Source of the DNA: Patescibacteria group bacterium
GTDB taxonomy: Bacteria > Patescibacteriota > Minisyncoccia > Phycocordibacterales > UBA1006
Direction: 5' to 3'
Assembly: GCA_020428645.1 (NCBI GenBank)
Contig: JAGQMN010000002.1
Span: 36 to 64,035 of the forward strand
DNA length: 64,000 nt
Positions within the stretch are counted from its first letter, which is position 1; each line of letters opens with the position of its first letter. The notes under the pieces are model-generated. The model was not told where the DNA came from and did not search any database. It saw nothing but the letters and a program-made list of their open reading frames with translations. The position numbers were made by a program, and so were the translations under genes. This document shows, in pieces, positions 3,044-39,650 of the stretch.

Positions 3044-4297
3044 TTACCCTTCGGTAAAGTACGCGATGAGACGTGCCGGGTCAACAAATTCGACATCTCC
3101 TGTGGCACGTTTGGTGATTTCAACACCACCTTTTTCAGCAGATTTTTCCGATACGACAATGCGGTATGGCATACCCATGAGGTCAGCATCATTCAACTTT
3201 TGACCAGGACCGAGGTCTCGATCATCAAACAGTACCTCAATACCCGCATTCTCTAAATCATGGTACAAGCTCTCGGCTTCGCGAAAAATATTTTCGTTGT
3301 TACCAAAGGTAAGAAGGTGGATCGTAAACGGTGCGATTTCTTCCGGCCATACAATACCCTTGTCATCAGCGAGGTTTTCAACAATGACACCCATTACACG
3401 TGTAATGCCAATACCATATGAACCAAGATACACAGGAATCTGTTTTCCTTCTTCACTGGTTACCAACAAATTCATATCCGCACATTTTTGAGTTCCAAAA
3501 TTAAAAATATTTCCTACTTCGGCAGTTGTTACTTTTTCAAGTTCACCTGCGGTAACCCCTAATTTTTTCAAGGTGTCATCGTTGTACACTTCATCATTAA
3601 TAGCAATTCCTTTTTCACGATTAATGTAAATTTCATCTTCACCGGTATCACAAATCGTTTGAAATTCATGGCTAAATTCAGTAAACGCTCCACCTCCTGC
3701 AAAGGTAATAAACGTATCATTACCGATACCTAAGCGATCGTAGCAGCGCTGGTATGCCTGAATAGTTTTTTGGTAGAAATCTTCATGGTGTTCTGCATCC
3801 AAAGAAAATGAATACATATCTTTCATGATAAATTCTCGTCCACGCATCATTCCCGCTTTTGCACGTAGTTCATTTCTAAATTTATTTTGAAACTGATACA
3901 CGTATGCGGGAAGATCTTTATATGAAGAGAGGTGGCTCTTCATCATTTCAGTAATTGGTTCTTCGTGTGACCAACCAAACCCTACCTCACCACCAGCGTT
4001 CAAAGTTGACTTAAACCATACATCTACAACATCATCATCCCAGCGTTTCGTTGCTGTCCATACATCCTTTGATTGTAGGCTCGACATAATGAATTCTTGA
4101 CCACCAATCGCATTCATTTCTTGGCGTACAATTTCTTTGATATTTTCAACAACCTTACTACCAAGTGGCAACAGATCGTACACACCAGCCATCTCCTTGT
4201 GAATATATCCAGCACGTATCAAAAGCTGTGCATTCTTTGATGTTTCATCACTCGGTGCTTCTTTACGAGTTTTGGTGAACAACTTGGACTGTTTCAT
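3044..4297 (-). CDS. proS: prolyl-tRNA synthetase, short bacterial-type form without the INS editing domain
   Basis: 417 aa with class II motifs (FRNELRAKAGMMRGREFIMKD, GSYGIGITR) and a C-terminal anticodon-binding domain. Its length leaves no room for the INS insertion. Confidence 0.88.
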   Translation of the reverse strand: MKQSKLFTKTRKEAPSDETSKNAQLLIRAGYIHKEMAGVYDLLPLGSKVVENIKEIVRQEMNAIGGQEFIMSSLQSKDVWTATKRWDDDVVDVWFKSTLNAGGEVGFGWSHEEPITEMMKSHLSSYKDLPAYVYQFQNKFRNELRAKAGMMRGREFIMKDMYSFSLDAEHHEDFYQKTIQAYQRCYDRLGIGNDTFITFAGGGAFTEFSHEFQTICDTGEDEIYINREKGIAINDEVYNDDTLKKLGVTAGELEKVTTAEVGNIFNFGTQKCADMNLLVTSEEGKQIPVYLGSYGIGITRVMGVIVENLADDKGIVWPEEIAPFTIHLLTFGNNENIFREAESLYHDLENAGIEVLFDDRDLGPGQKLNDADLMGMPYRIVVSEKSAEKGGVEITKRATGDVEFVDPARLIAYFTEG

Positions 4298-27783: not shown

Positions 27784-29049
27784 ATGTCTGAATCAAACAA
27801 ATCAAACAAAGATATCCTGCAGGCACCTCGCGGAATGCGTGATTTTTATGGTACACCATACCAACAGAAGAGTAATTTTTTTGAGTACGCACGTATGATT
27901 GCATCATCATATGGTTTTACAGGTATCGAAACGCCAATTCTTGAACATACTGAGATTTTTTTGAAAGGAATTGGAGAAGGTACCGACATCATCGATAAAG
28001 AAATGTACAACTTAACGACGCTCGGAGGTGATCGGTTAACGCTCAAACCAGAAGGTACCGCACCGATCATGCGTGCCTACATTGAACACGGTATGGGTGC
28101 ACTACCTCAACCGCAACTGTTTTATTACGAGAGTCCTTTTTTCAGACACGATAAACCACAGAAAGGTCGATATCGACAATTTTACCAATTCGGTCTTGAA
28201 ATTATGGGATCACGCGATCCATTGTATGATGCACTCACCATCGAGGTCGGATATCGAATCATTCAAAAAACTGGAAAAAAAGTGGTAGTGAAGATCAATA
28301 GCCTCGGGACACGTGACATTCGTGCATCGTACACCGAAACACTCGTCGCGTTTTATAGAGAACACCAATCAAAACTTGCCGAGGGTGACCAAGAACGTAT
28401 TGATACAAACCCATTCAGAATTCTTGATTCAAAAGAACCAGAAACCGTTACTGTTAATCAATCAGCACCGACTCTCATTGAAAGTCTAGACAAAGCATCA
28501 CGTGACCACTTTACCTCTGTCACTGATACTTTGGATGGCCTTGATATTCCATACGAAATTAATCCATTCCTTGTTCGTGGTATGGACTATTACGAACACA
28601 CCGTGTTTGAATACGTAACTTACGATAATGAGAATCAGGAATCATTTGCACTTGGCGGTGGTGGTCGCTACGACGGACTTGCAGAACTCATTGGTCACAC
28701 CACCTCAATTCCTTCAGTAGGACTTGGTCTGGGGGCTGATCGTATTATAGAAATCAGCGATGATACATTTACTACGAACCCGGGGGATAGAATACCTATG
28801 ATTGTCACCGAAAATTCATTGTATGTACATGCGTCACAACTACTCCAAAAATGTACGAATAACAAATTGTTTATGTACCCGCTCTTTACCAAGATTGGAA
28901 AGCAAATGAGCCGTATCGAAAAAGAGGGCTATACTCGTGTCTGTATTATCGGAGAAGATGAAGCGACCAACCAACAGGTTACTTACAAAGACCTCACTAC
29001 TGGCGAACAACGAACACTGTCGTATAAAGAACTCAACAACCTCTCGTAG
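27784..29049 (+). CDS. hisS: histidyl-tRNA synthetase
   Basis: 421 aa: PRGMRDF, LKPEGTAPIMRAY, FRHDKPQKGRYRQFYQFG, GGGGRYDGL. Confidence 0.95.
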   Translation: MSESNKSNKDILQAPRGMRDFYGTPYQQKSNFFEYARMIASSYGFTGIETPILEHTEIFLKGIGEGTDIIDKEMYNLTTLGGDRLTLKPEGTAPIMRAYIEHGMGALPQPQLFYYESPFFRHDKPQKGRYRQFYQFGLEIMGSRDPLYDALTIEVGYRIIQKTGKKVVVKINSLGTRDIRASYTETLVAFYREHQSKLAEGDQERIDTNPFRILDSKEPETVTVNQSAPTLIESLDKASRDHFTSVTDTLDGLDIPYEINPFLVRGMDYYEHTVFEYVTYDNENQESFALGGGGRYDGLAELIGHTTSIPSVGLGLGADRIIEISDDTFTTNPGDRIPMIVTENSLYVHASQLLQKCTNNKLFMYPLFTKIGKQMSRIEKEGYTRVCIIGEDEATNQQVTYKDLTTGEQRTLSYKELNNLS

Positions 29050-29092
29050 GTTTTTTGTTTGCAGAAACAGCAGTTTATTCTACACTGACACT

Positions 29093-29638
29093 ATGACAAC
29101 TATAGTCCAAGTAGGAAAAAAAGTGCTCCGCATGAAAGCACAAGAAGTACCAAAAGATGCTATTGCCTCGCCCGAAATACAGGGTGTGATAGCGCGTATG
29201 AACGAAGCGCTCGCCACCCAAAATGATGGGGTTGCTATTGCCGCACCACAAATTGGTGAATCCTATCGTATCTTTACGATTTCACCTGTTGTATTTGAAG
29301 AACCTGGTGATTACCATTTGGTCTACATCAATCCTGAAATAATGGAGGTGTCTAAGAAAACAAAGCTCTTGAATGAAGGGTGCCTCTCGTGTCGTTGGAA
29401 AATTGGCGATGTAGAAAGACACCTAACGGCAACGGTTCGGGCATATGACGAATATGGTAACCAATTTACTGAATCAGCTGACGGACTCCTCGCACATATT
29501 TTCCAACACGAAACCGATCACCTTGATGGTATTCTCTTTATCGACAAAGCAGAAAATCTGCGCGATATGACTGAGGAAGAAATTAATGAGGTACTCCAAG
29601 AAAATGCATCCCCACGGTACGACCAAATTAAAGACTAA
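29093..29638 (+). CDS. def: peptide deformylase
   Basis: 181 aa from the ATG at 29093: GVAIAAPQIG, EGCLS, HETDHLDG. The track ORF starting at 28937 is an upstream extension that overlaps hisS. Confidence 0.93.
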   Translation: MTTIVQVGKKVLRMKAQEVPKDAIASPEIQGVIARMNEALATQNDGVAIAAPQIGESYRIFTISPVVFEEPGDYHLVYINPEIMEVSKKTKLLNEGCLSCRWKIGDVERHLTATVRAYDEYGNQFTESADGLLAHIFQHETDHLDGILFIDKAENLRDMTEEEINEVLQENASPRYDQIKD

Positions 29639-29650
29639 CAGAAAAAAATA

Positions 29651-29679
29651 AAAACCACAGCCAAATGGCTGTGGTTTTT
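29651..29679 (+). terminator. intrinsic terminator after def
   Basis: AAAACCACAGCC-AAAT-GGCTGTGGTTTTT. Confidence 0.8.
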
Positions 29680-29752
29680 ATTGAACATGTCACAAACTAA
29701 ATTATGCTATGTGAACATATTTATACGTCATAACATAGTGGTATGAAATAAT

Positions 29753-29855
29753 TAAGAGAGGTTCTCTGTCATTCAGCGACAGATCGGGCGATGATACTTC
29801 ATCTAAGTATCATCGCCCGAATCCGGGACTGAATAGAATACCTCGTGTATCTATT
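29753..29855 (+). repeat. island end motif, copy 1 (TAAGAGAGGTTCT plus hairpins)
   Basis: TAAGAGAGGTTCTCTGTCATTCAGCGACAGATCGGG-[hairpin 29785-29819]-CCCGAATCC. Same architecture as 31119 and, inverted, 35528. Confidence 0.7.
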
Positions 29856-30019
29856 TTCTTCCTCCCCTCACTTTTACTAGACAGCAAAAGTGAGGGGATA
29901 AAAAAGTCGAATTTTACCTGACTGGATGGTATTCAACAAGACCATAACCTATTTAATTAAGATGCTCATCCCGAAGGATTCCCGAAATGGCTTTGCCATT
30001 TCGGGACCTAAACCTAGGT
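29856..30019 (-). repeat. island junction module J1
   Basis: Read on the minus strand: stop, 18-nt palindrome, hairpin 29980-30006, CCUUCGGG 29968-29979, degenerate AT hairpin, TTTTTTAT, variable hairpin 29864-29897, AGGAAGAA. Confidence 0.6.
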
Positions 30020-30415
30020 TTAGGATTTTTTTAACTTCGCTCCCCAACTATCAGCGAGGTTCTCTAGGGTTGGATCTTTTTTCTCTGATTTTTTAAAAAA
30101 ATCTTTCCCTACGGCAACCTCCTGGTCAGGACAATCTCTCTCGTTTACAAAACGAGAGGCAATCTCTTCTGCCCAGCCTAAGGGTGCAATGAGGAGTTTC
30201 CAACCCTCGCTTCCAGAACCTCCATACGTAGTAGTCTCCGATAAAATTCTAAGATTATTATCAGAATGAACAGAGAAAGCTGGCCATCTTTTTGCTCCGG
30301 ATCCCGGTCTATACTCTTGAACCAGGACAAGTTCTTGATTACAAGAACTTTTTTCATCAATTTCTCTCAAAAAGATTTTATCTTCTGAGGAAATGAAAAC
30401 ATTAGCAGCATACAC
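30020..30415 (-). CDS. hypothetical protein (island gene A)
   Basis: 131-aa ORF with a GTG start (uncertain). No recognisable family. Lies between the intact def and the displaced def 3' fragment. Confidence 0.45.
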   Translation of the reverse strand: MYAANVFISSEDKIFLREIDEKSSCNQELVLVQEYRPGSGAKRWPAFSVHSDNNLRILSETTTYGGSGSEGWKLLIAPLGWAEEIASRFVNERDCPDQEVAVGKDFFKKSEKKDPTLENLADSWGAKLKKS

Positions 30416-30453
30416 ATATCCCTCACTCTTATTGGAGGTTGCGAGATGGTTTT

Positions 30454-30546
30454 GATCACCTCGACGGTGTATTGTTCATCGACAAAGCACGTAAATTACG
30501 CGACATGACTGATGAAGAAATTAATGAGGTTTTACAGAAAAAATAG
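30454..30546 (+). pseudogene. displaced 3' fragment of a peptide deformylase gene
   Basis: Translates to DHLDGVLFIDKARKLRDMTDEEINEVLQKK*, which parallels def residues DHLDGILFIDKAENLRDMTEEEINEVLQEN (29516-29605). By eye about four fifths of nucleotides are identical. No 5' part is present. Confidence 0.85.
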
Positions 30547-30547
30547 T

Positions 30548-30995
30548 ATGGAAAAATTCAACGACAATCAAAAAAAAAGAGAAAGAGCCTGAGTTCGATG
30601 AGTTTCCAAAAGAATTTGGTAGATACTATCATGGTTCACCGCATAACGTAGAGGAATTATTAAGTCCAAAAGAAAGCGGAAATATTAGACCTGGTGAGGA
30701 AGTGAGACGATCTTTTAAGGATGTAGTATTTCTCACTAAGGATATACAACAAGCGGTACAATATGCTGGTCCTGGTGGAGTAGTCTACCATGTAGATGCT
30801 GACGCAGTCCGGTACAAAGACATTGCTGCTACATATCTCAATCCTAAAAAACTAAAATCAGTGAGCGAAAATATTTATGTTGCAAAACCTGAAGATATCG
30901 AAATGGTAGTCAAGTGGGTAAAGCAAGCAAATAGAAGAAAAAATGAACCTGAAAAGTATGTGGATTACTATGTTAAGAAATCACCTGAGCGATAG
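30548..30995 (+). pseudogene. frameshifted small gene (island gene F) with a YHGSP motif; broken or slippage-dependent at an A9 tract
   Basis: The ATG at 30548 opens a 14-codon frame that stops at 30590. The long frame (open from 30528, ending at 30995) has no ATG/GTG/TTG before 30702. Losing one A from the A9 run at 30570-30578 fuses the two into about 149 aa. Confidence 0.6.
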
Positions 30996-31052
30996 TAGAC
31001 CAACGTATTTATTGTGTCGATTTTTACTCAAAGTCATAAACAATTAACGAGG

Positions 31053-31092
31053 ACTCGTCTCCTATCAAACTTTTGTTTAAGTGGAGACGAGT
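31053..31092. terminator. hairpin between gene F and end motif copy 2
   Basis: ACTCGTCTCC-(20 nt)-GGAGACGAGT, a 10-bp stem. No clean T-run, so terminator function is tentative. Confidence 0.4.
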
Positions 31093-31118
31093 ACCAGCTA
31101 TAGTAACTAATACTTCAA

Positions 31119-31232
31119 TAAGAGAGGTTCTCTGTCATTCAATGACAGGTCGGGTGGTAATCATGATATGTAATCATGATTACCACCCGAATTTGTAATT
31201 CAATAATATTCTCACTTATATGCACAGAAACG
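31119..31232 (+). repeat. island end motif, copy 2
   Basis: TAAGAGAGGTTCTCTGTCATTCAATGACAGGTCGGG-[hairpin 31151-31189]-CCCGAATTT. The flanks are identical to copy 1, while the internal hairpin has a different sequence and is still fully paired. Confidence 0.7.
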
Positions 31233-31335
31233 TTCTTCCTCCGACACCACTTCTCTTCTTAACTTATGAAAAGAAGTGGTGTCGGATAAAAAAGGCAATT
31301 TTTTGAAGAAATTGCCAGAAAACTTTATGCACTAA
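31233..31335 (-). repeat. island junction module J2
   Basis: Minus sense: stop, AAAGTTTTCT, hairpin GGCAATTT/AAATTGCC (31294-31316), TTTTTTAT, variable hairpin 31241-31285, AGGAAGAA. Confidence 0.6.
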
Positions 31336-32382
31336 TTAAGAATTTAAAAATTTTTCCATTATAATTTCTGCTTCGTAATCATCATCCAAATTCTTGTCAC
31401 AAAAATCATATCTTTGTGTTGTTTGTAAATTACGATAAAAAAACTTTTCTCTTTCTTCTAAAGACATTTCTTTGAAGAAATTCATTATAGGATTATTTTT
31501 TAATTGCTTATAATGATCCTGCAACTTTTTTTCAAGTTTTTTCATTTCTGATAAAATTTTTTTCATTGTAACAATGTCATATTCTGAGTGTTTTACTGGT
31601 TGTTTTTTTAAACACCTCGTCACACGTTTATTGCCTGATGATTCGCGATATCCATCAGGCATCGAAGAGGGGTCAGAGACAAGAATATCTTCACTTGCTC
31701 TTAATACCCATTTATTACCTTCAAACACAGCAGCACAACCCCAAGAAATTTTGAATAGCTCTTTATTGTGGTATTTTCTAAATTTCTCAAAAACCTTTGG
31801 TTTTTGAGGTACAATTGTTGTATTGTTTAGAAACGCGCTGATGATGACCTCTGTTGGAAAATTAAACTTAAGTAGACTACTTATTTTCCGGGTGGTGAAG
31901 TCAGACGAGCAAAAACTTCTATTCAAAGATTTATATCTTTTGATAATAGCCCTTCTTGTACGAATCACATCTTTATTCGGTTTGAATTGATGGATATGTC
32001 CATATGTTAACTGTAATTCTTCTTTTTTAAGATTATTACAATAAACTTGAAAATCTATTTGTTCTTTTGATAAAGTCTTCCTTAAAGACTCTGATCTAGC
32101 ATATAGAAAATCTATGGCTTCTTTTTTGCTTATTCTTTTCAAATACACAACTGGATGCACTTTGTCTGGATACTTGATTGCTCTTTTCTCCAAATCAATA
32201 CAAGAGCTTTCAGCTCCACTTAAAATTTTATAAGCCTCCTCCACATAAGAGAGATAGTATTCTGCATATTGATAATTTTCAACTCTGTCATCTTCATTAA
32301 ATGAATAATAAGGAGTATGAATTACCTTTACATTAATTTTATTTTCCTTTCTGTGAATAAGGAATGAACTATTTTTTGACAT
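31336..32382 (-). CDS. hypothetical protein (island gene B), very AT-rich
   Basis: 348-aa ORF with no recognisable motifs. Confidence 0.55.
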   Translation of the reverse strand: MSKNSSFLIHRKENKINVKVIHTPYYSFNEDDRVENYQYAEYYLSYVEEAYKILSGAESSCIDLEKRAIKYPDKVHPVVYLKRISKKEAIDFLYARSESLRKTLSKEQIDFQVYCNNLKKEELQLTYGHIHQFKPNKDVIRTRRAIIKRYKSLNRSFCSSDFTTRKISSLLKFNFPTEVIISAFLNNTTIVPQKPKVFEKFRKYHNKELFKISWGCAAVFEGNKWVLRASEDILVSDPSSMPDGYRESSGNKRVTRCLKKQPVKHSEYDIVTMKKILSEMKKLEKKLQDHYKQLKNNPIMNFFKEMSLEEREKFFYRNLQTTQRYDFCDKNLDDDYEAEIIMEKFLNS

Positions 32383-32389
32383 AATTTAT

Positions 32390-32445
32390 ATATTTAAACG
32401 TTAGCCAAAACTTCCATCAGAAAGCCAAAGCTAACGTTTAAATAT
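32390..32445 (-). promoter_or_regulatory. start-proximal leader hairpin of gene B
   Basis: 16-bp perfect stem ATATTTAAACGTTAGC/GCTAACGTTTAAATAT with a 24-nt loop that begins TTTGG on the minus strand. Ends 7 nt before the ATG. Confidence 0.6.
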
Positions 32446-32638
32446 GATCATGAAATATTTTCTACAGGCAGGTTTTGCCGTTGGCAAAACCTGCCTGATA
32501 AAAAAGATAATGTTTTGTTTTTAGGCTCCATTATCAAAAGACCTTTATATAATATTTACTCCACACCACGTGGAAATTTTATTTCCCCGAAGGGTTAGCA
32601 TTCTTGGAAACCAATCCAAGAATGCTATTTTAGAAACA
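32446..32638 (-). repeat. island junction module J3
   Basis: Minus sense: stop, hairpin 32596-32627 (loop TTGGTT), CCCUUCGGGG 32585-32594, GATAATG/CATTATC hairpin, TTTTTTAT, variable hairpin 32465-32497, TAGAAAAT. Confidence 0.6.
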
Positions 32639-33463
32639 CTATGATTGCGTTCCACCAGCAAAACCCCGGTTCGGATTCCCGTAAGTATCCGAAATTCCGA
32701 GATCCGCAGCATTATCTAAAAATGCTTGAACGGTGGCTGCGTCACCGTTTAGCATTACCTTCTGCTCAAATCCTGGACGTGAGTCCACGTGAGCGAGAAA
32801 GCTTTTACCGGTCATGGTGCCGGCCTCTACCATAAATGGTAGAGCTCCATTTTTGCGGAAATCAGGAACCTCCTGATCCCCAACGGTAATGGTTGCCGTT
32901 GGATTTTCCAAAAGCGCTACGCACTTTTGGATTTCCTTTTTCGCTTCGTCTTCGCTTACGCGTTGACGAGCACATAGTTCGGGCAAACGAATTGCCAGAA
33001 CTTCCTCGGGCGTTACCCCAGGGCACTCGCCCTGGTACGCCGCGCCGAGGCAGTGATCAGCTGCAGCAATCACTCGCTGCTTTTGATCCAGTTGCAGACC
33101 AAGCAAGTCTGCAACCTGCCCCAGTGAGCTCCCTGCCTCAAAATCGGCAGGGGTAGCCGCAAACCCGGGGTCTCCAGGTTTGTGGTGGTCAACCACGATT
33201 TTTTCCTGCTTGATAGAATAACTATCAGCAGGGGTACACTCGATCAGAACCATCTGATCAAATGCGTCCACCTCGATTTCTTCTCCATTTTTGGAGATAA
33301 TTGAAGTGAATTTCCCGGCAGTGTCGGGGAAACACCGTTTAGTATTTCCTTCCCTGTCGGGTGCCGCGGCATAACCAACGGCAATATTTTTTTGTGCAAG
33401 CAATGCTTCTATTGCTTGCATTTCGATGTCGTTAGCACCGAGGATAAAAATTTGATTGCTCAT
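32639..33463 (-). CDS. hypothetical protein (island gene C), possible DHH-like phosphoesterase; visibly higher G+C than its neighbours
   Basis: 274 aa. VVDHHKPGDPG resembles DHH motif III, and there are N-terminal ILGANDIEM and C-terminal FAGG motifs. Assignment is weak. Confidence 0.55.
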   Translation of the reverse strand: MSNQIFILGANDIEMQAIEALLAQKNIAVGYAAAPDREGNTKRCFPDTAGKFTSIISKNGEEIEVDAFDQMVLIECTPADSYSIKQEKIVVDHHKPGDPGFAATPADFEAGSSLGQVADLLGLQLDQKQRVIAAADHCLGAAYQGECPGVTPEEVLAIRLPELCARQRVSEDEAKKEIQKCVALLENPTATITVGDQEVPDFRKNGALPFMVEAGTMTGKSFLAHVDSRPGFEQKVMLNGDAATVQAFLDNAADLGISDTYGNPNRGFAGGTQS

Positions 33464-33777
33464 ATTTTTATACTCTGCTGGGACAGAGATTCTATTTATT
33501 CCCAGAATTACTGAATTTTTTGCGGAGAATTACAGTCATGCTCCGTCTCGCTATCTGCCACGCTGGTGTCCCCACCTTTTGCAGAAATGTTATGCGTGGT
33601 ACTTGGCTGCGCCGTTCCTCGCGAGATTTTCTATGAGTTTTCTACCGAGATTGCTTTGCTTTCGCTCGCAATGACACGGTACAAAACTCAATAAAAAAGT
33701 CGATTTTTGAAAAGAATCGACAGAAACTTTTTAACCAATCTGAAACCATAGGCACCATACCTGCGGTTTCAAAAAAA
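33464..33777 (-). repeat. island junction module J4 plus a GC-rich structured leader of gene C
   Basis: Minus sense: stop, hairpin, TGGTTAAAAAGTTTCT, hairpin 33699-33721, TTTTTTATT, long hairpin 33635-33689, ATAGAAAAT, then nested helices CTCGC/GCGAG (33547-51 with 33621-25), CCACGC/GCGTGG (33558-63 with 33594-99) and GGTG-TCCC-CACC (33565-76). Confidence 0.55.
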
Positions 33778-34509
33778 CTAAGATTCCCAAATTAACTCTG
33801 GAATCAAAACTCCAGAGTGACGAATCAGAAAAATAATATCCTCTACCATTTTGAGAGGGTATTTTTTTCTTAACTCCATTTCATAATACTCCAGGGCTGT
33901 TTCCAGCCCATATTCTCTTTCAAGATTTTCAAAAAAATCTGAATTCAGAGTATCCCCCTCACCCTTACCAGAAATAAGGTCTTGGTAAGATACCCCTACT
34001 TCCTTTAATCTCTCTCGAGCCTCAAAGAAAAATAAAATAGTTTTCTTTTCTTCTTCGCTCGTTTTAAGGATCTCAAGATAATCCTCGAGATCCTTTGAAC
34101 GCCCCTCCGCTAAAAGGGCTTTTTCTTTCTTATGTCGTATTGCAAACTCACGACTGCAATACGCTGGATTTTTTTGATCAGCTTCTGGTAGCTGATCATT
34201 TACGAGAATATCAACGACCCTTTGGTCGTCTTTTCCTAATAGAAGTCCCGCGTCGAGGACCTCTGTCCATTTCATAAACCCCGAAGGACTCTCGAGGTGT
34301 TTGGTTGTGGATCCATCCTGAAAGTCCATCGTGGCTATCAGGATCTTTTTTATTTTTTCCATGTCCTTGGTCGAGGACACTATCACGTCAACGTCTCTTA
34401 TCTCCCTCGAGATAAGATTGTGTTTTTTAAGAACCATAGAACCTACGATTCTTAAATTTATTTTTTTTGAAATGTTTTCCAACATCTCAGTAATTTTGAT
34501 ATTTTTCAT
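33778..34509 (-). CDS. Pol-beta superfamily nucleotidyltransferase-domain protein (island gene D)
   Basis: 243 aa. RIVGSMVLKKHNLISREIRDVDVIV fits the hG[GS]-x(9-13)-DhD NTase signature. Helical C-terminal half. Confidence 0.6.
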   Translation of the reverse strand: MKNIKITEMLENISKKINLRIVGSMVLKKHNLISREIRDVDVIVSSTKDMEKIKKILIATMDFQDGSTTKHLESPSGFMKWTEVLDAGLLLGKDDQRVVDILVNDQLPEADQKNPAYCSREFAIRHKKEKALLAEGRSKDLEDYLEILKTSEEEKKTILFFFEARERLKEVGVSYQDLISGKGEGDTLNSDFFENLEREYGLETALEYYEMELRKKYPLKMVEDIIFLIRHSGVLIPELIWES

Positions 34510-34516
34510 GGTTTTA

Positions 34517-34567
34517 ATTTTAAAGTTACCTAAAATCTCTAACAGAGACCAAAGGTAACCTTAAAAT
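34517..34567 (-). promoter_or_regulatory. start-proximal leader hairpin of gene D
   Basis: 14-bp stem (one mismatch) ATTTTAAAGTTACC/GGTAACCTTAAAAT with a 23-nt loop that begins TTTGG on the minus strand. Ends 7 nt before the ATG. Confidence 0.6.
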
Positions 34568-34720
34568 AATACTTATGAAAATATTTCAGGTTTTCTTCCT
34601 TCGGTGGATTTTACTACATAAAACCCACCGAATAAAAAAGTCGATTTTTGAAAAGAATCGACGGAACTTTTTAACCATTCCCCGAAGGGAACCCAAGCCA
34701 GCGACCAAGCTGGCTTGGGT
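34568..34720 (-). repeat. island junction module J5
   Basis: Minus sense: stop, hairpin 34691-34720 (loop TTGGTC), CCCUUCGGGG 34680-34689, TGGTTAAAAAGTTCC, hairpin 34640-34662, TTTTTTATT, variable hairpin 34601-34631, AAGGAAGAA. 34632-34677 is near-identical to 33691-33737. Confidence 0.65.
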
Positions 34721-34957
34721 CTATTGCCAGAATTTCCATGTTTCTATGCTATTTCTAATCTGGCGTATTTCCTCTCTGGTAAGTTCCTCTACCGAGGAAC
34801 TTGTTTGAATGGATTTGATCATGTTAAAGAAGTTTTGAACTTCTTTAACTTCATCGATCAGACGACATTTCGCCTGAAAACTCTACTTCCCTTTCTCTGA
34901 AAGGGATTCCACTAGATGCTGGTTGCATCTTTCTAATTCTTGTTTTAAATTTCCCAT
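34721..34957 (-). pseudogene. small helical ORF (island gene E) interrupted by an in-frame TAG
   Basis: Own translation: MGNLKQELERCNQHLVESLSEKGK*SFQAKCRLIDEVKEVQNFFNMIKSIQTSSSVEELTREEIRQIRNSIETWKFWQ*. The amber codon at 34883-34885 is in frame with the ATG at 34957 and the stop at 34721. Confidence 0.4.
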
Positions 34958-34961
34958 TTTA

Positions 34962-35048
34962 CTTGTTTTGGTGAACTTTGGTTTCTTACTCAGATTCTGA
35001 ATCAAGTCCAGAATGATAAACCAAAAAACCAAAGTTCACCAAAACAAG
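34962..35048 (-). promoter_or_regulatory. start-proximal 23-bp perfect inverted repeat upstream of gene E
   Basis: CTTGTTTTGGTGAACTTTGGTTT (34962-34984) pairs with AAACCAAAGTTCACCAAAACAAG (35026-35048). The 41-nt loop begins TTTGG on the minus strand. Ends 4 nt before the ATG. Confidence 0.6.
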
Positions 35049-35515
35049 ATAAATATGAAAAGCTCTCTTGAAATTTCCAAATCATTTGGGATTCCAAGAG
35101 AGTGTGACGTAGTCAAATGTATGATGTTGTTTGACTACCTCCCACTCTCTTTCAAGAGTTTGTGTCCAGCGGTAGTTCATACTTCTGCTGCGCGTGTTGT
35201 TCGCCCGTCGTCAAAGTATGATCTACGTGGTATGAAATTATTAAGGTACCATCCTTTCTTCACCTCTCTTACATTAGCAACCCGAGATTCTGAAGCTGTC
35301 TGCCCTTAGGTAGGACGATGTCAGAATGACGAGCGACTTGGTAAAGAAATTTCTGGAGACGAAGGTGGTTAGTCTTCCCCGTCCAGCAGATTTCTTTATC
35401 AATCTGTCTTTATCAGATATCCACCAGTGACGAGTTCCGGTCGTGTGGTAGATTCTGAATGGAACGGTTGGTGTGCCCTCAGCGCCGTTTGCACCAACCC
35501 CGTATTGATTTGCAA
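35049..35515 (-). other. ORF-free region rich in paired segments (candidate large ncRNA or element-end structure); strand uncertain
   Basis: No ORF of 60 aa or more that I trust. There are many nested inverted repeats, e.g. CTCTCTTGAAA/TTCCAAGAGAG, GAGAGTG/CACTCTC enclosing GTAGTCAAA/TTTGACTAC, and GGTTGGTG/CACCAACC. Confidence 0.35.
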
Positions 35516-35528
35516 AGAACCTCTCTTA
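35430..35528 (-). repeat. island end motif, inverted copy
   Basis: The reverse complement reads TAAGAGAGGTTCTTTGCAAATCAATACGGGGTTGGTG...CACCAACCGTTCCATTCAGAATCTACC. Its 13-nt terminus matches 29753 and 31119, followed by the same CGGG-hairpin-CCG layout. Confidence 0.6.
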
Positions 35529-35691
35529 GTCTCGTACATATCGTAGCATGTGCTTGACATAGTGTCAATACAGTGTGACCATATTTTACAAACTATGAAT
35601 AATATTATGACATTGTATTAAAAAATATTGATTTTCAATACGATTTAGTCATGTGCTTGTGACATTTTAAATCTTTTGGTACTATACCAGT

Positions 35692-36459
35692 ATGGAAAAT
35701 ACGCAAACCATACAACAGCTAGAGACCTTAGGACTCTCTCGTGAACAATCACTGGTATACCTCTGCCTGCTCGATAACGGGTTTAGCAAGGCTGGTAGCA
35801 TACCGAAAAAGACAGGTTTGAAACGGGGTTTGGTGTATAAAGTTCTCGATCAGCTCATTGAACGCGGGCTTGCCAAAAAACACGGGGAAGATACTGCGGT
35901 TGCACGCTTTGCCCCACTCTCTCCTGAAGGATTAAAATCACTCGTGGAAGAGAAACTTCGAGCTGCTGAAGCACACCAGGAACTCTTTAAGGATCTCTAC
36001 AGCCCACTTAAATCTAAATTCAATCTGTTAACGGGACGGCCAAGTGTACGGTACTACGAGGGTCACGATGAGGTTCGAGAGATGCTTTACGACTGTCTCG
36101 AAACAACAGGCGTCATCTACACCTACGCTGATGCCGACATGGTAGCCGAACACTTTCCTGATTTAAATAAGGAACATATTGCCGAAAGGCATGAACGCGG
36201 TATCGCAAAGAGAATTCTTGTTGCAGACAGCAAACACGGTCGACAGACCAAGAAGGACTCGCTGAAAGACGATCTAACCGACATACGGATTATCGAAAAA
36301 GAATATCTCCCCTTTAGCGCCGTTGCAGAAATATACGACAATAAAGTTGCCTATATTACCTCATCAGATATTGGAATATCTGGGGTATTGATTGAAGATC
36401 GACAAATTGCCACCATGCAAAAATTTATGTTTGAAGCTCTGTGGGAGCAATCACAATAG
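35692..36459 (+). CDS. TrmB-family transcriptional regulator
   Basis: 255 aa with an N-terminal winged helix (LETLGLSREQSLVYLCLLDNGFSKAGSIPKKTGLKRGLVYKVLDQLIERGL) and a TrmB-type C-terminal domain. Confidence 0.75.
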   Translation: MENTQTIQQLETLGLSREQSLVYLCLLDNGFSKAGSIPKKTGLKRGLVYKVLDQLIERGLAKKHGEDTAVARFAPLSPEGLKSLVEEKLRAAEAHQELFKDLYSPLKSKFNLLTGRPSVRYYEGHDEVREMLYDCLETTGVIYTYADADMVAEHFPDLNKEHIAERHERGIAKRILVADSKHGRQTKKDSLKDDLTDIRIIEKEYLPFSAVAEIYDNKVAYITSSDIGISGVLIEDRQIATMQKFMFEALWEQSQ

Positions 36460-36492
36460 CAACAACATTCCCGTTTCTCAAAAAAACAAGCA

Positions 36493-39114
36493 CTATTCTG
36501 CTTGTTTTTCGTCAGGGTTAAGTTCTCGTTTATGCTCTAACACAACATAGTGCTTTCCTGTTGTATTATCAGTAAAGGAATGTGTCATAACGCCATGTTC
36601 CAATTGTGATCTATCAAAATCACGAGGATTATCGAGCACTAGAATATCAATACCTTTGGCGGTACTATATTCACCACTTCTAATTCCTTCTCGGGTAAAA
36701 CTCCGAGATAAGTAGCTGGTGTTTGCTTGATTATCCCAAACCAAATTAAGTGCATGAACACCTTCATACTTTGCAGCGGAAACAGCAACGAATCCCATGT
36801 CCAAGTATCGAGAACAAGCACTACCTGACATGTTTGCTTCAGCGTGTAGTACGTGTTCGTGAGCTTCTTTGGTTAATGCCTGAGCAATCATCGCCTCTCC
36901 TAATGCGTAGCCTTGAGATTCTTTTGCTACGTTTAACGCGCTGGCAAATTTACTTCCGTCTGGATTTGATTCAAAACGAATAAACGCATTAAGTTCATTA
37001 TTGATGCGATAAGTATAAAATTCACTATTGGTTTTGCTTTGAAAAGCTGTAGTAAATTGATTGATGAGTATGTGTCTCGTTTGGGGATCATACTGTTTAT
37101 TGTTTTCAGTATAGATCTCCAACATCTCCATCTGTTCCGGGATAGAGATGTCAGCGATATTTTTATGTTGAAACTCGGAACCCTTAATATCCTCTAACGT
37201 TAAATCAAAACCAAGTTTTCGAGCAAATTTAAAAGTAGAGAGTGTTGCTATAGCATCAGCAGAAATCTTCGATAATTCATTTTCAATAAGATGAACGGTG
37301 TCTAGTGTATCTGTTTCTTTGAGTGCATCGATGCGATTATAAAAAATATTTAATACGCTCACGCCTTTTTGTAGAATATTATCACAAACCCGGTCGATGA
37401 TTTCTGGATCATCTGCAATCTCATGAGAAAATTCTGATGTAATAAATGCCTCTATCCCCTTGGTTGCATCCACCAGTTCTGAATATTTAGTAAAAATAGC
37501 GTTTGCTGATTCTGAGGGAAGCTTTTCTGCAAGATCAAGAATTTTTTGACTCATTTCTGACCCACCAATATCAAGAGAAAGAAAAGCGCGTAAAATATTG
37601 TTACTATTCAAATCTTCATTTTTTAAGATAGTTTCAAGGGTGTTCCATTCATTTTGTTTTGTACCAGCTAGATAGTCGAGAAATTGTACCTGTTCATCAA
37701 GATACATTTCCCTCACATCAACACCAAACTCATGTTTGATTATCCATCTTACTTCAGGTGTATGCATAGATGAGATTAAACCAGCGTCTTTATTTTTAAT
37801 AACCTCGTTATACGGTGCGGGATGCACCGTAATTCTATTCTTCAATTTTTCATGAAGATATTTTTTCATGACAAAATAATCAAGTGATAATAACTCTTTC
37901 TTCTTTTTTTGAAATTGTTGAGCAATTTCTGGACTCTGATTTTTAATGTTCCAATCACAATAATCCAATCGATCACGGAGAAAAAATGAAAAATCAGTCT
38001 CATTGAGTTCATCTACATTTTTTCCTAAACCCTTACTTTCTTGCAAAAACGAGAGGAGGTCTTGATAGGTATGGTCATATACTTCGGCATTAACCCCTTC
38101 GAAAAAAACATTATTATTTTGAGTTCGGTAATCTTGAGAGACAAACAACCCAAAGGAAGATTGTAAACCATTAGAAAGGGAAAAATAATCTTTGGACACC
38201 TGTTGGATCCCTGCTGATCGATAGAAAGGGGAATTTAAATTTTCAACATAGTATCGAGTAGCGTTTTCTAAATGTTCATTATTGTTCGTGGTTATATTAT
38301 CATAATGACTATGTAAAAATTCACTTACCTCTCCGGTTTCCTCTTGTTTTTCTAAATCTTCAATGAGATGTAAATTGTAGTCAGCAAGTAAGTTTAATAA
38401 GGGTAGATTAAACTCTTCTTTGATACAGTGAATTATTTCAATACCTTTTAGATATGCATGGTGTGCACTCTCGTAACCTACACTCTGTGCATCAAGAGTA
38501 ATTCTTGCAATCGTTTTTAAAAAAATAATCTTTTTTTCATCTGAAAGAGATTGTACATAGTGTTTTATAGAATCACTAAGAGAATTTTCATATTCGAAAG
38601 ATATATTATAAACAACTTCTCCTGTGGTATGGTAGACAAGATTGTCCATACATCCAGAATTATTCATCTCCCCTAAAGCCAAAAAATAATTATTAACATC
38701 ATACGAAAGAAGTGGGGCAAGAATATTTGGACTACGCCCAAAAAAGTTTTCCTTAACAAATTGAATAAAATCATCTTTTTTTGATATTTCTATTTCTTGA
38801 GAGTAAAAAATTTCTTCTAGCTTATCTCTTAACAAGAGAACAAACTCATGGGTAAGGTCTGAGACTTCTTTTGTGACCAAATGATCTTCAGGACCACTCC
38901 CAAGTAGCGTTTTCATTTTTCGTTCAATGGGATTGGAAAAATACTTATTATCCCCATCAAGAGATCCAGACAAAAGAGTATCAAAGTAATCTTGGGTAAA
39001 TGTTCTGAATTCAGTTTTAATGTCTTCAAAATTTTCAATATGCTCTTTCACTTCAGGATTGACATTATTAAATTCTTTTTTCGTATTATCTTTTTTATAA
39101 GCCTCAGGATTCAT
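36493..39114 (-). CDS. large hypothetical protein with a probable C-terminal GNAT acetyltransferase domain
   Basis: 873 aa. The last ~170 aa carry a GNAT motif-A-like ESQGYALGEAM in a beta-alpha context. The N-terminal ~650 aa have no recognisable family. Confidence 0.5.
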   Translation of the reverse strand: MNPEAYKKDNTKKEFNNVNPEVKEHIENFEDIKTEFRTFTQDYFDTLLSGSLDGDNKYFSNPIERKMKTLLGSGPEDHLVTKEVSDLTHEFVLLLRDKLEEIFYSQEIEISKKDDFIQFVKENFFGRSPNILAPLLSYDVNNYFLALGEMNNSGCMDNLVYHTTGEVVYNISFEYENSLSDSIKHYVQSLSDEKKIIFLKTIARITLDAQSVGYESAHHAYLKGIEIIHCIKEEFNLPLLNLLADYNLHLIEDLEKQEETGEVSEFLHSHYDNITTNNNEHLENATRYYVENLNSPFYRSAGIQQVSKDYFSLSNGLQSSFGLFVSQDYRTQNNNVFFEGVNAEVYDHTYQDLLSFLQESKGLGKNVDELNETDFSFFLRDRLDYCDWNIKNQSPEIAQQFQKKKKELLSLDYFVMKKYLHEKLKNRITVHPAPYNEVIKNKDAGLISSMHTPEVRWIIKHEFGVDVREMYLDEQVQFLDYLAGTKQNEWNTLETILKNEDLNSNNILRAFLSLDIGGSEMSQKILDLAEKLPSESANAIFTKYSELVDATKGIEAFITSEFSHEIADDPEIIDRVCDNILQKGVSVLNIFYNRIDALKETDTLDTVHLIENELSKISADAIATLSTFKFARKLGFDLTLEDIKGSEFQHKNIADISIPEQMEMLEIYTENNKQYDPQTRHILINQFTTAFQSKTNSEFYTYRINNELNAFIRFESNPDGSKFASALNVAKESQGYALGEAMIAQALTKEAHEHVLHAEANMSGSACSRYLDMGFVAVSAAKYEGVHALNLVWDNQANTSYLSRSFTREGIRSGEYSTAKGIDILVLDNPRDFDRSQLEHGVMTHSFTDNTTGKHYVVLEHKRELNPDEKQAE

Positions 39115-39287
39115 TGCTGCAATGATAGCATAAATTTAAAGCAATATAAATATAAATGTGTCAAAATACGAGATAGGTGGGACAAAAAATAATTAAAAGT
39201 GGTAGTGTCTTAAGCATTAGGTGTTCGAGACAAAAATGAATAAATTAAAAGAAAACTAAAAACACACCAACGTGGTGTGTTTTTAAT

Positions 39288-39650
39288 TTATACAAAAGAC
39301 AGCACAATGAGGAGGAGTCCAATAATTGAGACATTTCCCATAAAGGTGTGCATCTCTTGAATGCGTTGCGCGGGATCAGTAACTTTCCAAAACCGATGCA
39401 TAACGAGGGTTACTAATACAAAGAATATCAGTAACAACACTGTCCCCCACCACGGATTGTACCAAGCAATGTAGGAGAGCCCTCCAAGCATTAAGAGTAT
39501 TCCCGTAACGAGTGTTGCAAGCGTTGGAAGAGGAACACCCTTGCTGCGAGCCATGTTACTCAGCTTGCTCAGTCCTGAAAAATGATTAATGCCAGCAAAG
39601 AGCATGAGTCCTCCAAAGAGTAATCGTCCAATAAGAATAACGATATCCAT
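39288..39650 (-). CDS. DoxX family membrane protein
   Basis: 120 aa with four TM helices and the typical N-terminus IGRLLFGGLMLFAGINHF. Confidence 0.75.
   Translation of the reverse strand: MDIVILIGRLLFGGLMLFAGINHFSGLSKLSNMARSKGVPLPTLATLVTGILLMLGGLSYIAWYNPWWGTVLLLIFFVLVTLVMHRFWKVTDPAQRIQEMHTFMGNVSIIGLLLIVLSFV

Follow-up and report, generated by a model that had tools for sequence, protein, structure and literature searches.

In rRNA operons, helices between leader and trailer occur together with boxA antitermination (PMC10250234), and boxA is also located upstream of CRISPR arrays (PMC7665894). Pairing of the 5'- and 3'-UTR of icaR mRNA in S. aureus creates an RNase III substrate (PMC3868564). 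Pairing of a 5'-UTR with a 3'-UTR within one mRNA is also described for hbs of B. subtilis (PMC5737220).

A short purine-rich motif, TAAGAGAGGTTCT, brackets an array of gene cassettes in the window (the whole 64-kb stretch of DNA analysed; Table 1). The motif could be an RNA-level cis element of a long operon in a conserved accessory locus, a tentative reading with a probability of about 0.4. Like the rRNA leader with its boxA, the locus combines a strong promoter and a structured leader with a short element, single-stranded and no more than ~20 nt from the start. As in an rRNA operon, a long transcript, poorly translated or containing terminators, would carry at its far end a sequence complementary to the start of the leader. 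Behind the purine run, GGUUCUUUGCAAA may resemble Gram-positive boxA sequences. Unlike an rRNA operon, the cargo here consists of protein-coding cassettes. The most conserved part here is the purine run GAGAGAGG, which lies outside boxA, and UUCUUU is paired, not single-stranded, in the alignment fold. As in icaR, the putative transcript would combine a Shine-Dalgarno-like purine motif on the 5' side with a pyrimidine anti-motif in its 3' region. In contrast to icaR and hbs, 4-6 kb with several genes separate these elements, no start codon follows the purine motif, and the host genome does not use Shine-Dalgarno sequences (a signal in 8/60 genes versus a 14% background, i.e., none).

Table 1. 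Features of the locus (positions in the window)
Feature	Position	Strand	Remarks
Whole inserted island	29639..39287		def stop to DoxX stop; missing in related genomes
def (peptide deformylase)	29093..29638	+	Pfam PF01327, E 2.8e-43
Bidirectional intrinsic terminator after def	29647..29682		17-bp perfect inverted repeat between A and T runs
Motif copy 1	29753..29765	+	left-type, inverted relative to leader; within segment 29516-30453 acquired with foreign def 3' end
Copy 1 hairpin	29784..29820		perfect 16 bp, TCGGGCG/CGCCCGA base; z -7.8
Junction hairpin, last of gene A segment	29856..29906	-	CUUUUUUAU-stem-AGGAAGAA; sense -28.9 vs antisense -21.8 kcal/mol
Gene A	30020..30415	-	5'-truncated cassette remnant; no family match
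Displaced def 3' fragment	30454..30546	+	DHLDGVLFIDKARKLRDMTDEEINEVLQKK-stop; 78% identical to 29516-29604
148-aa ORF after displaced def tail	30549..30995	+	no assigned function
Motif copy 2	31119..31131	+	left-type; resident far end of cassette array
Copy 2 hairpin	31150..31190		perfect 18 bp; z -8.6
Junction hairpin after gene B	31233..31294	-	preceded by terminator-like hairpin 31294-31316 and U run
Cassette gene B	31336..32382	-	348 aa; no family match
Junction hairpin C/B	32457..32506	-	conserved junction hairpin
Cassette gene C	32639..33463	-	274 aa, DHH-like hydrolase; PADLOC DHH_CorA, E 8.6e-9
Junction hairpin D/C	33626..33699	-	conserved junction hairpin
50-nt junction repeat, copy 1	33690..33740		terminator-like hairpin GTCGATT..AATCGAC and U run; endpoint of 941-bp cassette D indel
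Cassette gene D	33778..34509	-	243 aa; weak nucleotidyltransferase similarity; present/absent in population
Junction hairpin E/D	34593..34640	-	conserved junction hairpin
50-nt junction repeat, copy 2	34631..34680		direct-repeat partner of 33690 copy
Structured leader RNA	35062..35533	-	starts with copy 3, contains copy 4; core 35195-35533 aligns with four other islands
Motif copy 4	35262..35271	-	TAAGAGAGGT; orientation as copy 3
Motif copy 3	35516..35528	-	right-type; ~+5 to +18 of leader transcript
Conserved promoter	35540..35568	-	TTGACA-17-TGcTACGAT; best promoter match in region; predicted to drive leader and cassettes
TrmB-family regulator	35692..36459	+	Pfam PF01978; divergent from leader; conserved platform
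873-aa protein	36493..39114	-	platform; conserved C-terminal half ending in GNAT domain

In the relatives L051, L053 and L068, def is followed directly by DoxX-DUF378-fmt or by fmt, and the island is absent. Between the near-isogenic L081 and L053, 98% identity stops in def at GAAGAAATTGATGA and restarts at the DoxX 3' end; the 8.97-kb insert of L081 includes the TrmB and GNAT protein genes. From these empty relatives and breakpoints the island is delimited as 29639 to ~39287. The sequence-only reading held that the motif copies delimit the island as its insertion boundaries. They do bracket the cassette array, but they are internal to the inserted island, whose presence/absence breakpoints are in def and at DoxX.

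The same plan is realized in four other metagenomic islands (L081/L082, L077/L078, L085 and L086); the locus belongs to some uncultured Paceibacteria-like Patescibacteria, between def and DoxX/fmt. In both other islands with an assembled def side (L081 and L085), an inverted pair again surrounds variable cargo, as had been anticipated: a plus-oriented copy just past the def terminator (position 448 and 769, respectively), with the motif-palindrome-long hairpin layout of the window, and a minus-oriented copy beside TrmB. Pfam/profile searches revealed no transposase or recombinase genes in any of the five islands, and no integrase, invertase or transposase is encoded in them or within 10 kb of them.

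On the interpretation first put forward, the motif copies would be terminal inverted repeats of a transposon, here taken as non-autonomous and mobilized by a transposase of single-strand (IS200/IS605-like) or other type; it is very improbable. The inverted 25-nt pair with subterminal hairpins agrees with it, and such an element type is expected to leave no target-site duplication; IS200/IS605 and REP/RAYT elements likewise have hairpin ends and no target duplication. However, no transposase gene (Y1 or other) is present, and the presence/absence boundaries lie elsewhere. The window has no further copy; a 23-nt degenerate pattern gave no hit among 185,579 species genomes and, in the metagenome collection, none outside this locus. 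The motif is thus locus-bound, not dispersed. Its chromosomal place, from the def terminator to the TrmB promoter, is fixed even though TrmB is only 52-61% identical, and therefore vertical or locus-bound inheritance is indicated, not transposition. The ends of IS200/IS605 elements are not inverted repeats, whereas true inverted repeats are present here. The reading of the copies as transposon ends is largely refuted, and the 31119/35528 pair, which does form an inverted pair around variable cargo, does not represent element termini.

The exact 13-mer is found at all three sites claimed for it (copies 1-3); two extra exact copies would be expected by chance at ~4e-6 in 128 kb of two-strand sequence. 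A fourth copy, the exact 10-mer TAAGAGAGGT, and a partial motif, GAGGTTCTCT at 30056 (+), had been missed, and the 64-kb window contains no further exact copies. The consensus across islands is TRAGAGAGGT, with TAAG in 4/4 window copies and TGAG in nearly every copy of the other islands. Copies 1 and 2 share 86% identity over 43 nt, with 23 identical nt. Their long hairpins are unrelated in sequence, as previously described, stand on a common base (TCGGGYG...CRCCCGA) and are followed by the same module, TTCTTCCTCC-hairpin-GGATAAAAAAG. Copy 3, inverted, matches copy 2 at 21/25 nt. The ~90-nt layout ascribed to every copy holds for copies 1 and 2 and is weaker at copy 3, because the hairpin there has only 8 bp and is no better than shuffles (z -0.14). 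In both direct copies the last junction hairpin is indeed followed by the motif where a leader hairpin and a gene would otherwise stand. The long hairpins at left copies are perfect palindromes with zero G-U pairs and are therefore strand-uninformative; a DNA-level site or a terminator would be equally suited.

With its motif, short palindrome and hairpin, the left module looks like the initial ~90 nt of the leader. It could have arisen by an ancient inverted duplication of the leader's beginning and have persisted by chance, without a function. Such an origin is quite improbable: the 10-nt core is invariant except for one R position in 9/9 left and right copies, while the flanking hairpins there have no sequence similarity left, and the 23 identical nt of copies 1 and 2 contrast with adjacent def tails that are only 78% identical.

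The last ~120 nt of def (from 29516) form the left recombination zone of the island. Mosaic def 3' ends are represented by L050 and by the fragment at 30454, the C-terminus of which matches the P0007/P0009 lineage; the gene A ORF abuts this def fragment at 30441-30453. The suggested tie of the 29753 copy to the def duplication was confirmed: this copy lies in a separate segment that is linked to the duplicated def 3' end. As a left end, copy 1 is additional and foreign; it arrived with the def 3' fragment via recombination in a conserved def motif.

On the opposite side, the variable array is preceded by a fixed platform that comprises a regulator of TrmB type, a large protein with a GNAT domain, a conserved sigma-70 promoter and a structured leader. 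TrmB homologues in the same context are 52-68% identical. GNAT families were matched in 5/5 members of the 873-aa protein family (best E 6.6e-5), and no PDB sequence match was obtained for this protein. The promoter is conserved in L081, L077, L085 and L086 as TTGACAnnATGTCAAG..TAtagT. In these four islands the GAGAGG core of TGAGAGAGGTTCTTT opens the leader 14 nt past the -10 hexamer, and conserved leader blocks and then a second motif copy (~260 nt downstream) follow. In the window, copy 3 begins 11 nt past the hexamer, with 14 nt to the GAGAGG core.

The leader measures 330-470 nt across islands. Its alignment fold contains 57 predicted pairs, 22 of them with compensatory changes; 88.7% of cells are paired (39-50% in slid controls), and 0/500 shuffles gave values as high. 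The fold z is -5.4, G-U pairs are found on the cassette-sense strand only, and Rfam gave no match. The leader is a conserved, structured, previously uncatalogued RNA, the start of which is marked by the motif. Inside this covariation-supported RNA the motif occurs 2-4 times in a single orientation. In the predicted helix 1, GUGAAGAA after copy 4 pairs with UUCUUUGC after copy 3, and copy 4 stands at the 3' side of the helix closing the leader domain.

Such a distribution could also be expected of a DNA or RNA site for a locus protein (TrmB-like or GNAT) or a host factor; array expression would then depend on several sites, located in the leader near the promoter and at the far end. Copy 3 occupies a typical roadblock position relative to the promoter, each leader has 2-4 motif copies, regulator and motif are always linked, and all copies of a genome have the same genome-specific variant. 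This possibility is nevertheless rather unlikely. Sites of the TrmB family are palindromic, while the motif is asymmetric and purine-rich, and better candidate operators are available in the TGTCAC-N-TGACA palindromes that cover both divergent promoters and are conserved in relatives. A far-end operator would be 4-6 kb off, with no obvious target promoter.

The cassettes are unrelated and co-oriented, with a conserved hairpin, CUUUUUUAU-stem-AGGAAGAA, between them. For 10 of its 11 copies from three genomes, the antisense RNA is predicted to fold less stably than the sense RNA, and UUCG tetraloop hairpins are located on the sense strand. Apart from the leader promoter, no cassette-sense extended -10 was detected in island intergenic DNA (the promoter type of this genome is TGnTATAAT, with leaderless starts). 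Gene C is 29% identical to a 306-aa cassette of L081.

This organization recalls integrons: one platform promoter serves co-oriented, promoter-less, highly variable cassettes, each terminated by an imperfect palindrome whose outer boxes are conserved and whose centre varies; cassettes are present or absent in the population, and the cargo looks toxin- or defence-like. Accordingly, the motif copies, perhaps with the junction hairpins, could be DNA sites of integron-like or invertible-segment type for a recombinase encoded elsewhere in the genome. Between the leader-proximal and the def-proximal site, this enzyme would insert or excise cassettes, shuffle them or invert them. Three genomes conserve the inverted pair around such cassettes, with a single strong promoter in front, and the junction hairpins are attC-like in their boxes and centre. 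The presence or absence of cassette D is delimited exactly by two junction repeats, and the C-type cassette with its leader has another array position in L081 than in the window. In addition, four contigs from four samples break <100 nt from copy 1, the left flank of copy 1 is the reverse complement of the leader block beside copy 4 (18/19 nt), and motif copies covary within a genome, which a shared protein or recombinase fits as well as RNA pairing does.

Site-specific recombination is nonetheless unlikely. Neither IntI nor any other recombinase is available in the islands or their 10-kb surroundings. No match to the attC cores RYYYAAC/GTTRRRY is seen in the junction boxes TTTTTTAT/AGGAAGAA, which pair through G-U only, an indication of RNA. 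Copies 3 and 4 are direct repeats in the covariation-supported RNA, which would be deleted by their recombination. A single orientation is found in all five islands and in every contig crossing copies 2 or 3. The sole cassette-level indel seen in the population (L015), that of cassette D, has its endpoints in the 50-nt junction repeat, not in the motif, and within 32 identical nt, so that ordinary homologous recombination can explain it. The motif is not where the island is gained or lost; this happens at def and DoxX. Unlike integrons, the locus also has a 330-470-nt structured leader in the place of attI and a TrmB-like regulator and a GNAT protein as platform genes.

As an RNA-level element, the motif could function as follows. 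The array would be read from the leader promoter as one long transcript, with a putative start at the leader and presumed read-through of the terminator-like junction hairpins. On this full-length transcript the motif would come first, at the 5' end, and its exact complement, AGAACCUCUCUUA, would follow close to the 3' end. Leader and trailer could then pair over 16-25 bp; alternatively, the 3' portion could target the leader in trans. Pairing of this kind would govern how the array is processed, how stable it is or whether it is read through. For the window, the predicted energy of the 5'/3' duplex is -36 kcal/mol if copy 1 provides the 3' strand and -41 kcal/mol if copy 2 does. The duplex is strong in the window only; in L081 (-26.7 kcal/mol) and L085 (-19.5 kcal/mol), within-genome pairs are no better than cross-genome pairs. 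In L081 and L085 a short U run follows the long hairpin in the sense direction; if it acts as a terminator, the motif complement would remain untranscribed there.

Conserved intergenic hairpins along a putative long transcript are also characteristic of the phage T7 early region and other polycistronic transcripts processed by RNase III. The flanking boxes UUUUUUAU/AGGAAGAA, unlike those systems, are specific to this locus, and cleavage here is suggested by analogy. If processed by RNase III as in T7, the intergenic hairpins would leave each mRNA with stable hairpin ends.

The motif found in several copies in the window belongs as a cis element to a conserved and previously undescribed locus, in which a platform (a TrmB-like regulator, a large GNAT protein, a promoter and a leader) is combined with an array of minus-strand cassettes. 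A structured leader RNA, also new, has the right copy of the motif as its 5′ end; the distal end of the array is marked by a left copy in inverted orientation. The 13-mer TAAGAGAGGTTCT is exact in copies 1, 2 and 3, and no further exact copy is present in the 64-kb window. The sequence-only reading had described these three copies correctly, as also holds in other genomes; it missed copy 4, an exact TAAGAGAGGT oriented like copy 3, and a partial motif, GAGGTTCTCT, at 30056 (+). The latter string, in common with copies 1 and 2, belongs to ATCAGCGAGGTTCTCT at 30050–30065 (+) within the 3′ coding end of gene A, which may be a degenerate fifth copy.

Features of the region in window coordinates; junction elements of the related islands L081 and L085 are numbered on their own contigs
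Feature	Position	Strand	Remark
HisRS	27784–29049	+	
def	29093–29638	+	
Motif copy 1 (13-mer)	29753–29765	+	left-type
Gene A	30020–30415	-	truncated ORF
Duplicated def 3′ fragment	30454–30546	+	78% identical to 29516–29604
148-aa ORF	30549–30995	+	
Motif copy 2 (13-mer)	31119–31131	+	left-type
Cassette B	31336–32382	-	no family match
Cassette C	32639–33463	-	DHH-like hydrolase (PADLOC, E 8.6e-9)
Cassette D	33778–34509	-	faint nucleotidyltransferase signal
Motif copy 4	35262–35271	-	
Motif copy 3 (13-mer)	35516–35528	-	right-type
TrmB-family regulator	35692–36459	+	
873-aa protein	36493–39114	-	GNAT domain at C-terminus
DoxX	39288–39650		
Junction elements, window	29856–29906, 31233–31294, 32457–32506, 33626–33699, 34593–34640		
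Junction elements, L081	599, 2291, 3480, 5012		
Junction elements, L085	1685, 2618		

Copies 1 and 2 share 43 nt (86% identity, 23 nt identical) and are directly followed by perfect hairpins of 16 and 18 bp, respectively, which are unrelated in sequence apart from a common base, TCGGGYG/CRCCCGA (fold z-scores -7.8 and -8.6). About 100 nt past both copies lies one common module, TTCTTCCTCC-hairpin-GGATAAAAAAG-hairpin. When inverted, copy 3 agrees with copy 2 in 21 of 25 nt (84% complementary), and its hairpin of only 8 bp folds like shuffled sequence (z -0.14); the end layout proposed earlier for all three copies, with a long hairpin at each, thus stands at copies 1 and 2 and is weaker at copy 3. 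All four window copies read TAAG, and TGAG is found in nearly every copy of the other four islands. This split by genome shows a constraint common to the copies, compatible alike with RNA pairing and with recognition by one protein.

The motif was rejected as coding sequence, since reading frames differ between copies, and as an ordinary ribosome-binding site, since no start codon follows it and Shine-Dalgarno sequences are not used in this genome (8 of 60 genes, against a background of 14%). No consistent -10/-35 promoter precedes the left copies (copies 1 and 2, L081, L085). Directly left of copy 1, GTGGTATGAAATAATTAAG at 29738–29756 (+) recurs at 35227–35245 (+) beside copy 4 with 18 of 19 nt; read on the opposite strand, this outer flank of copy 1 corresponds to a conserved leader block adjoining copy 4. 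The repeat could be a trace left by an earlier rearrangement between copies of the motif, or it could be an antisense promoter, TGGTATGAAAT.

The same locus was recovered from about ten digester metagenomes by exact-protein look-ups. In related Patescibacteria, namely HKST-UBA44 (GCA_020428615.1), a Paceibacteria lineage and the P0007 lineage, HisRS-def is followed directly by DoxX-DUF378-fmt or by fmt; the island of the window therefore extends from 29639 to about 39287, including the TrmB-like regulator and the GNAT protein. The near-isogenic contigs L081, which carries the island, and L053, which lacks it, match at 98.2% until GAAGAAATTGATGA near the def end, and the match restarts at the DoxX 3′ end (91%). 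Within its 8.97 kb, the L081 insert has a new def tail and a motif copy, three cassettes and the structured region, plus TrmB and a 929-aa GNAT protein. These boundaries lie beyond the motif copies, by 170 nt at def and by 3.9 kb at DoxX, so the copies are internal to the island and not, as had been assumed, its borders. No duplication of the DoxX 3′ end mirroring that of def was found, and no tRNA or tmRNA attachment site lies near the island. The HisRS-based search of species genomes yielded only distant relatives without the island.

These breakpoints also bear on the possibility that the motif copies are classical transposon ends (IS200/IS605-like or other), and on the earlier proposal, unsupported here, that the island is mobile and depends on a structure-specific transposase. 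No transposase, integrase or invertase was detected among the island ORFs in Pfam, NCBIfam, PHROGs and PADLOC scans, nor a transposase near the element or among the precomputed Pfam matches of the four related islands. The 873-aa protein was rejected as a recombinase, having only its C-terminal GNAT domain and no PDB relative by sequence. Copies at unrelated sites are absent from the window, the genome contigs and the metagenome contigs: exact matches to one degenerate 23-nt pattern were lacking in the genome contig collection and occurred in metagenome contigs at this locus only. Twenty-one viral matches to a 16-nt pattern were dismissed as single chance matches. With the copies lying off the presence/absence boundaries as well, transposon ends are effectively excluded.

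The def 3′ end is mosaic from the HExxH/DHLDG codons onward (29516–29604, 30454–30546 and contig L050). In L050 (1250–1422), def of the window organism is joined to a tail 100% nucleotide-identical to that of HKST-UBA44, with the crossover located in a 23-mer common to both def sequences. Judged from sequence, this points to the def 3′ end as a recombination zone, with inter-species recombination at a conserved core gene beside the island, and less so to an assembly chimera. The fragment at 30454 encodes a P0007-type def tail. The best reading of the segment 29516–30453 (def tail, terminator, copy 1, one junction module and 5′-truncated gene A) is that it stems from the island of another lineage and would have arrived via one def crossover and one illegitimate join; from this structure and the foreign def tail, the sequence-only reading was right to call copy 1 an extra left end. 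Contig L006 agrees with the window across def and copy 1 and for 87 nt into the gene A 3′ end, then diverges totally (L006 1344–1692, window 30106 onward), reflecting either another cassette variant or a chimera. Contigs of at least four independent assemblies end at 30924–30925 or begin at 30932/30986, within the 148-aa ORF, and no repeat accounting for these breaks at 30925–30986 was found.

TrmB homologues with 52–68% identity occur in matching context in four relatives' versions of the island (L077/L078, L081/L082, L085 and L086). The common arrangement is TrmB on the plus strand followed by the convergent large GNAT protein; divergent from TrmB, a non-coding stretch of 490–840 nt is followed by minus-strand ORFs, almost all without Pfam matches. 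In the large platform protein (window, L077, L081, L085, L086) the N-terminal half is variable and the C-terminal ~400 aa, ending in the GNAT fold, are strongly conserved. The non-coding stretch opens in 5/5 islands with a conserved promoter, TTGACAnnATGTCAAG..TG.TAtagT, which is the top promoter match of the window region; the GAGAGG core of TGAGAGAGGTTCTTT starts 14 nt past the -10 hexamer, and copy 3 is the window version of this promoter-proximal element. Copy 4 is conserved about 260 nt downstream, with one extra copy of the same orientation in L077 and two in L086. Both contigs that extend to def, L081 and L085, bear a plus-oriented copy 110–155 nt past the def stop, right after the terminator, with the motif, a short AT-rich palindrome and a long hairpin arranged as at copies 1 and 2. 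An inverted pair enclosing variable cargo is thus conserved at this locus, bearing out the earlier expectation.

Palindromes of the TGTCAC-N-TGACA type at 35547–35569 and 35650–35672, among them TTGACActaTGTCAA at the leader -35, overlap both divergent promoters and are also conserved in the TrmB upstream regions of L081 and L077. These are likely the operators of the TrmB-like regulator. The motif itself could be proposed as the operator of this protein, which is less likely given these better candidates.

The leader alignment A4 (five leaders, structure from RNAalifold) contains 57 predicted pairs, 22 of them with compensatory changes. Its cells are paired in 88.7%, against 39–50% with partners slid by 1–3 columns, and none of 500 shuffles attains the observed values on any of five measures. 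The G-U pairs are compatible with the cassette-sense strand only. In the outermost helix, UUCUUUGC right after copy 3 pairs with GUGAAGAA right after copy 4, and the purine runs of the two copies flank the closing helix of a ~300-nt domain. The central hairpin (UUGAUAAAGAAAUCU...CUAACCA...AAAUUUCUUUACCAAG) has an almost invariant base and a covarying upper half. A covariation-supported structure is hence found downstream of a conserved promoter, as in structured cis-regulatory leader RNAs. With Rfam 15, the sole window match was a tRNA elsewhere, with nothing relevant in 29000–36500 at E up to 5, and L077, L081, L085 and L086 gave no match. No phage, plasmid or IMG/VR counterpart of the leader was found; two IMG/VR leader-pattern matches were rejected as lying in coding DNA without the motif.

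Many genes carry a TGnTATAAT extended -10 only 5–10 nt ahead of the start codon, which implies mostly leaderless mRNAs. The leader promoter is the only cassette-sense extended -10 in the island intergenic DNA; a weaker extended -10 overlaps copy 4. At each junction the sense strand contains a terminator-like hairpin with a U run and, immediately after it, the junction element CUUUUUUAU-stem-AGGAAGAA, whose variable GC stem bears UUUU/AAAA (11 copies in three genomes). Its flanking boxes pair through G-U only, and the sense RNA fold beats the antisense one in 10 of 11 cases; CCCUUCGGGG tetraloop hairpins likewise lie on the sense strand. The element could mark where the RNA is processed or be an RNA element of another type. 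The seemingly promoter-less cassettes, together with the sense-strand junction hairpins and tetraloops, suggest one long transcript from the leader, which would be read through at the junctions and probably processed there.

Cassette proteins are unrelated between islands, except for one C-like protein of 306 aa in L081, which has only 29% identity to cassette C despite a conserved upstream leader. This GC-rich leader of ~200 nt (33464–33690, minus strand) is conserved in L081 at 3320–3440; it has no match in Rfam and could act as a cis-regulatory RNA, for instance a riboswitch. The only cassette D homologue lies on a 921-bp contig bearing the same junction sequence. 'Gene E' (34715–34947, minus strand) has its ORF interrupted after 25 codons, by a stop or a frameshift, and probably represents a small cassette in decay. 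The leader hairpin of this gene (34950–35060) is also found upstream of the cassette D homologue in contig L040; weak microRNA-type matches there were rejected, reflecting only a long AU-rich hairpin.

Real support remains for the motif copies as recombination sites. Contig L015 (Logan SRR7638748) lacks exactly 941 bp, namely cassette D (33690–34680; L015 1185–1234), with the deletion endpoints within 32 identical nt of the junction repeat. The place of the C-type cassette in the array differs between two genomes, four contigs, each of a different sample, stop less than 100 nt from copy 1, and the leader block by copy 4 recurs, inverted, in the outer flank of copy 1. Against this, no recombinase is linked to the locus, nothing resembles attC, no contig shows an alternative orientation or junction, and two of the copies are direct repeats within a conserved RNA. 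As in invertons, inverted repeats (25 nt, 84% complementary, conserved in L081 and L085) flank a segment; a single orientation was observed in five islands and in every contig crossing copies 2 or 3, and no invertase gene is nearby. Inversion, if it occurred, would join ...GAAATAAT/TAAGAGAGGTTCT or ...CTTCAA/TAAGAGAGGTTCT to TTGCAAATCAATACGGGG.

The locus resembles integrons in its co-oriented, variable cassettes, which look promoter-less and would be read from a promoter of the platform. The array is not accompanied by an IntI tyrosine recombinase, the platform being a TrmB-like regulator and a GNAT protein, and inspection revealed no attC cores (RYYYAAC...GTTRRRY), the junction hairpins being flanked by CTTTTTTAT/AGGAAGAA. 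It is rather improbable that the locus is a new gene-cassette acquisition platform of Patescibacteria following integron-like logic with unrelated parts: TrmB/GNAT, a single promoter and a structured leader, cassettes flanked by CUUUUUUAU-hairpin-AGGAAGAA, and the TRAGAGAGGT pair as terminal recombination or processing sites, served by a recombinase encoded elsewhere or by an RNA-guided step with the leader.

The reading with most support is an RNA bracket or a processing mechanism, although its probability is put at only about 40%. A transcript from the leader would run across the junction hairpins toward the left copies, which would appear as the exact complement AGAACCUCUCUUA near the transcript 3′ end, past the last junction hairpin. 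The predicted 5′/3′ duplex reaches -36 kcal/mol with copy 1 and -41 kcal/mol with copy 2; the values for L081 (-26.7 kcal/mol) and L085 (-19.5 kcal/mol) are no better than those of cross-genome pairs, and co-evolution of left and right copies by duplex energy is convincing for the window only. The string GGUUCUUUGCAAA appears similar to Gram-positive boxA sequences. The proposed bracket has known parallels in rRNA operons, which combine a leader-trailer helix with boxA antitermination (PMC10250234), and in the RNase III-cut duplex of the icaR 5′- and 3′-UTRs (PMC3868564). BoxA is also found upstream of CRISPR arrays, and its consensus differs between phyla (PMC7665894). No rRNA operon is present in the window or in the related loci retrieved.

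Patescibacteria have tiny genomes with few recognised mobile elements or regulatory RNAs. The locus described here is accessory and recurs at a single chromosomal hot spot, from def to fmt, where a fixed platform is associated with fully exchangeable cargo, partly of defence- or toxin-like genes. It contains two uncatalogued RNA elements, the 330–470-nt leader with good covariation support and the junction hairpin (11 in three genomes). If a leader-trailer bracket arises from the motif, or an antitermination or processing factor is recruited by it, one promoter would express horizontally acquired cassettes, which would be an expression route for an organism with leaderless, Shine-Dalgarno-free translation. 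Should the motif instead serve for recombination, this would be a cassette system for which no integrase is known. In both cases, the motif and the leader can be used to search metagenomes for such islands.
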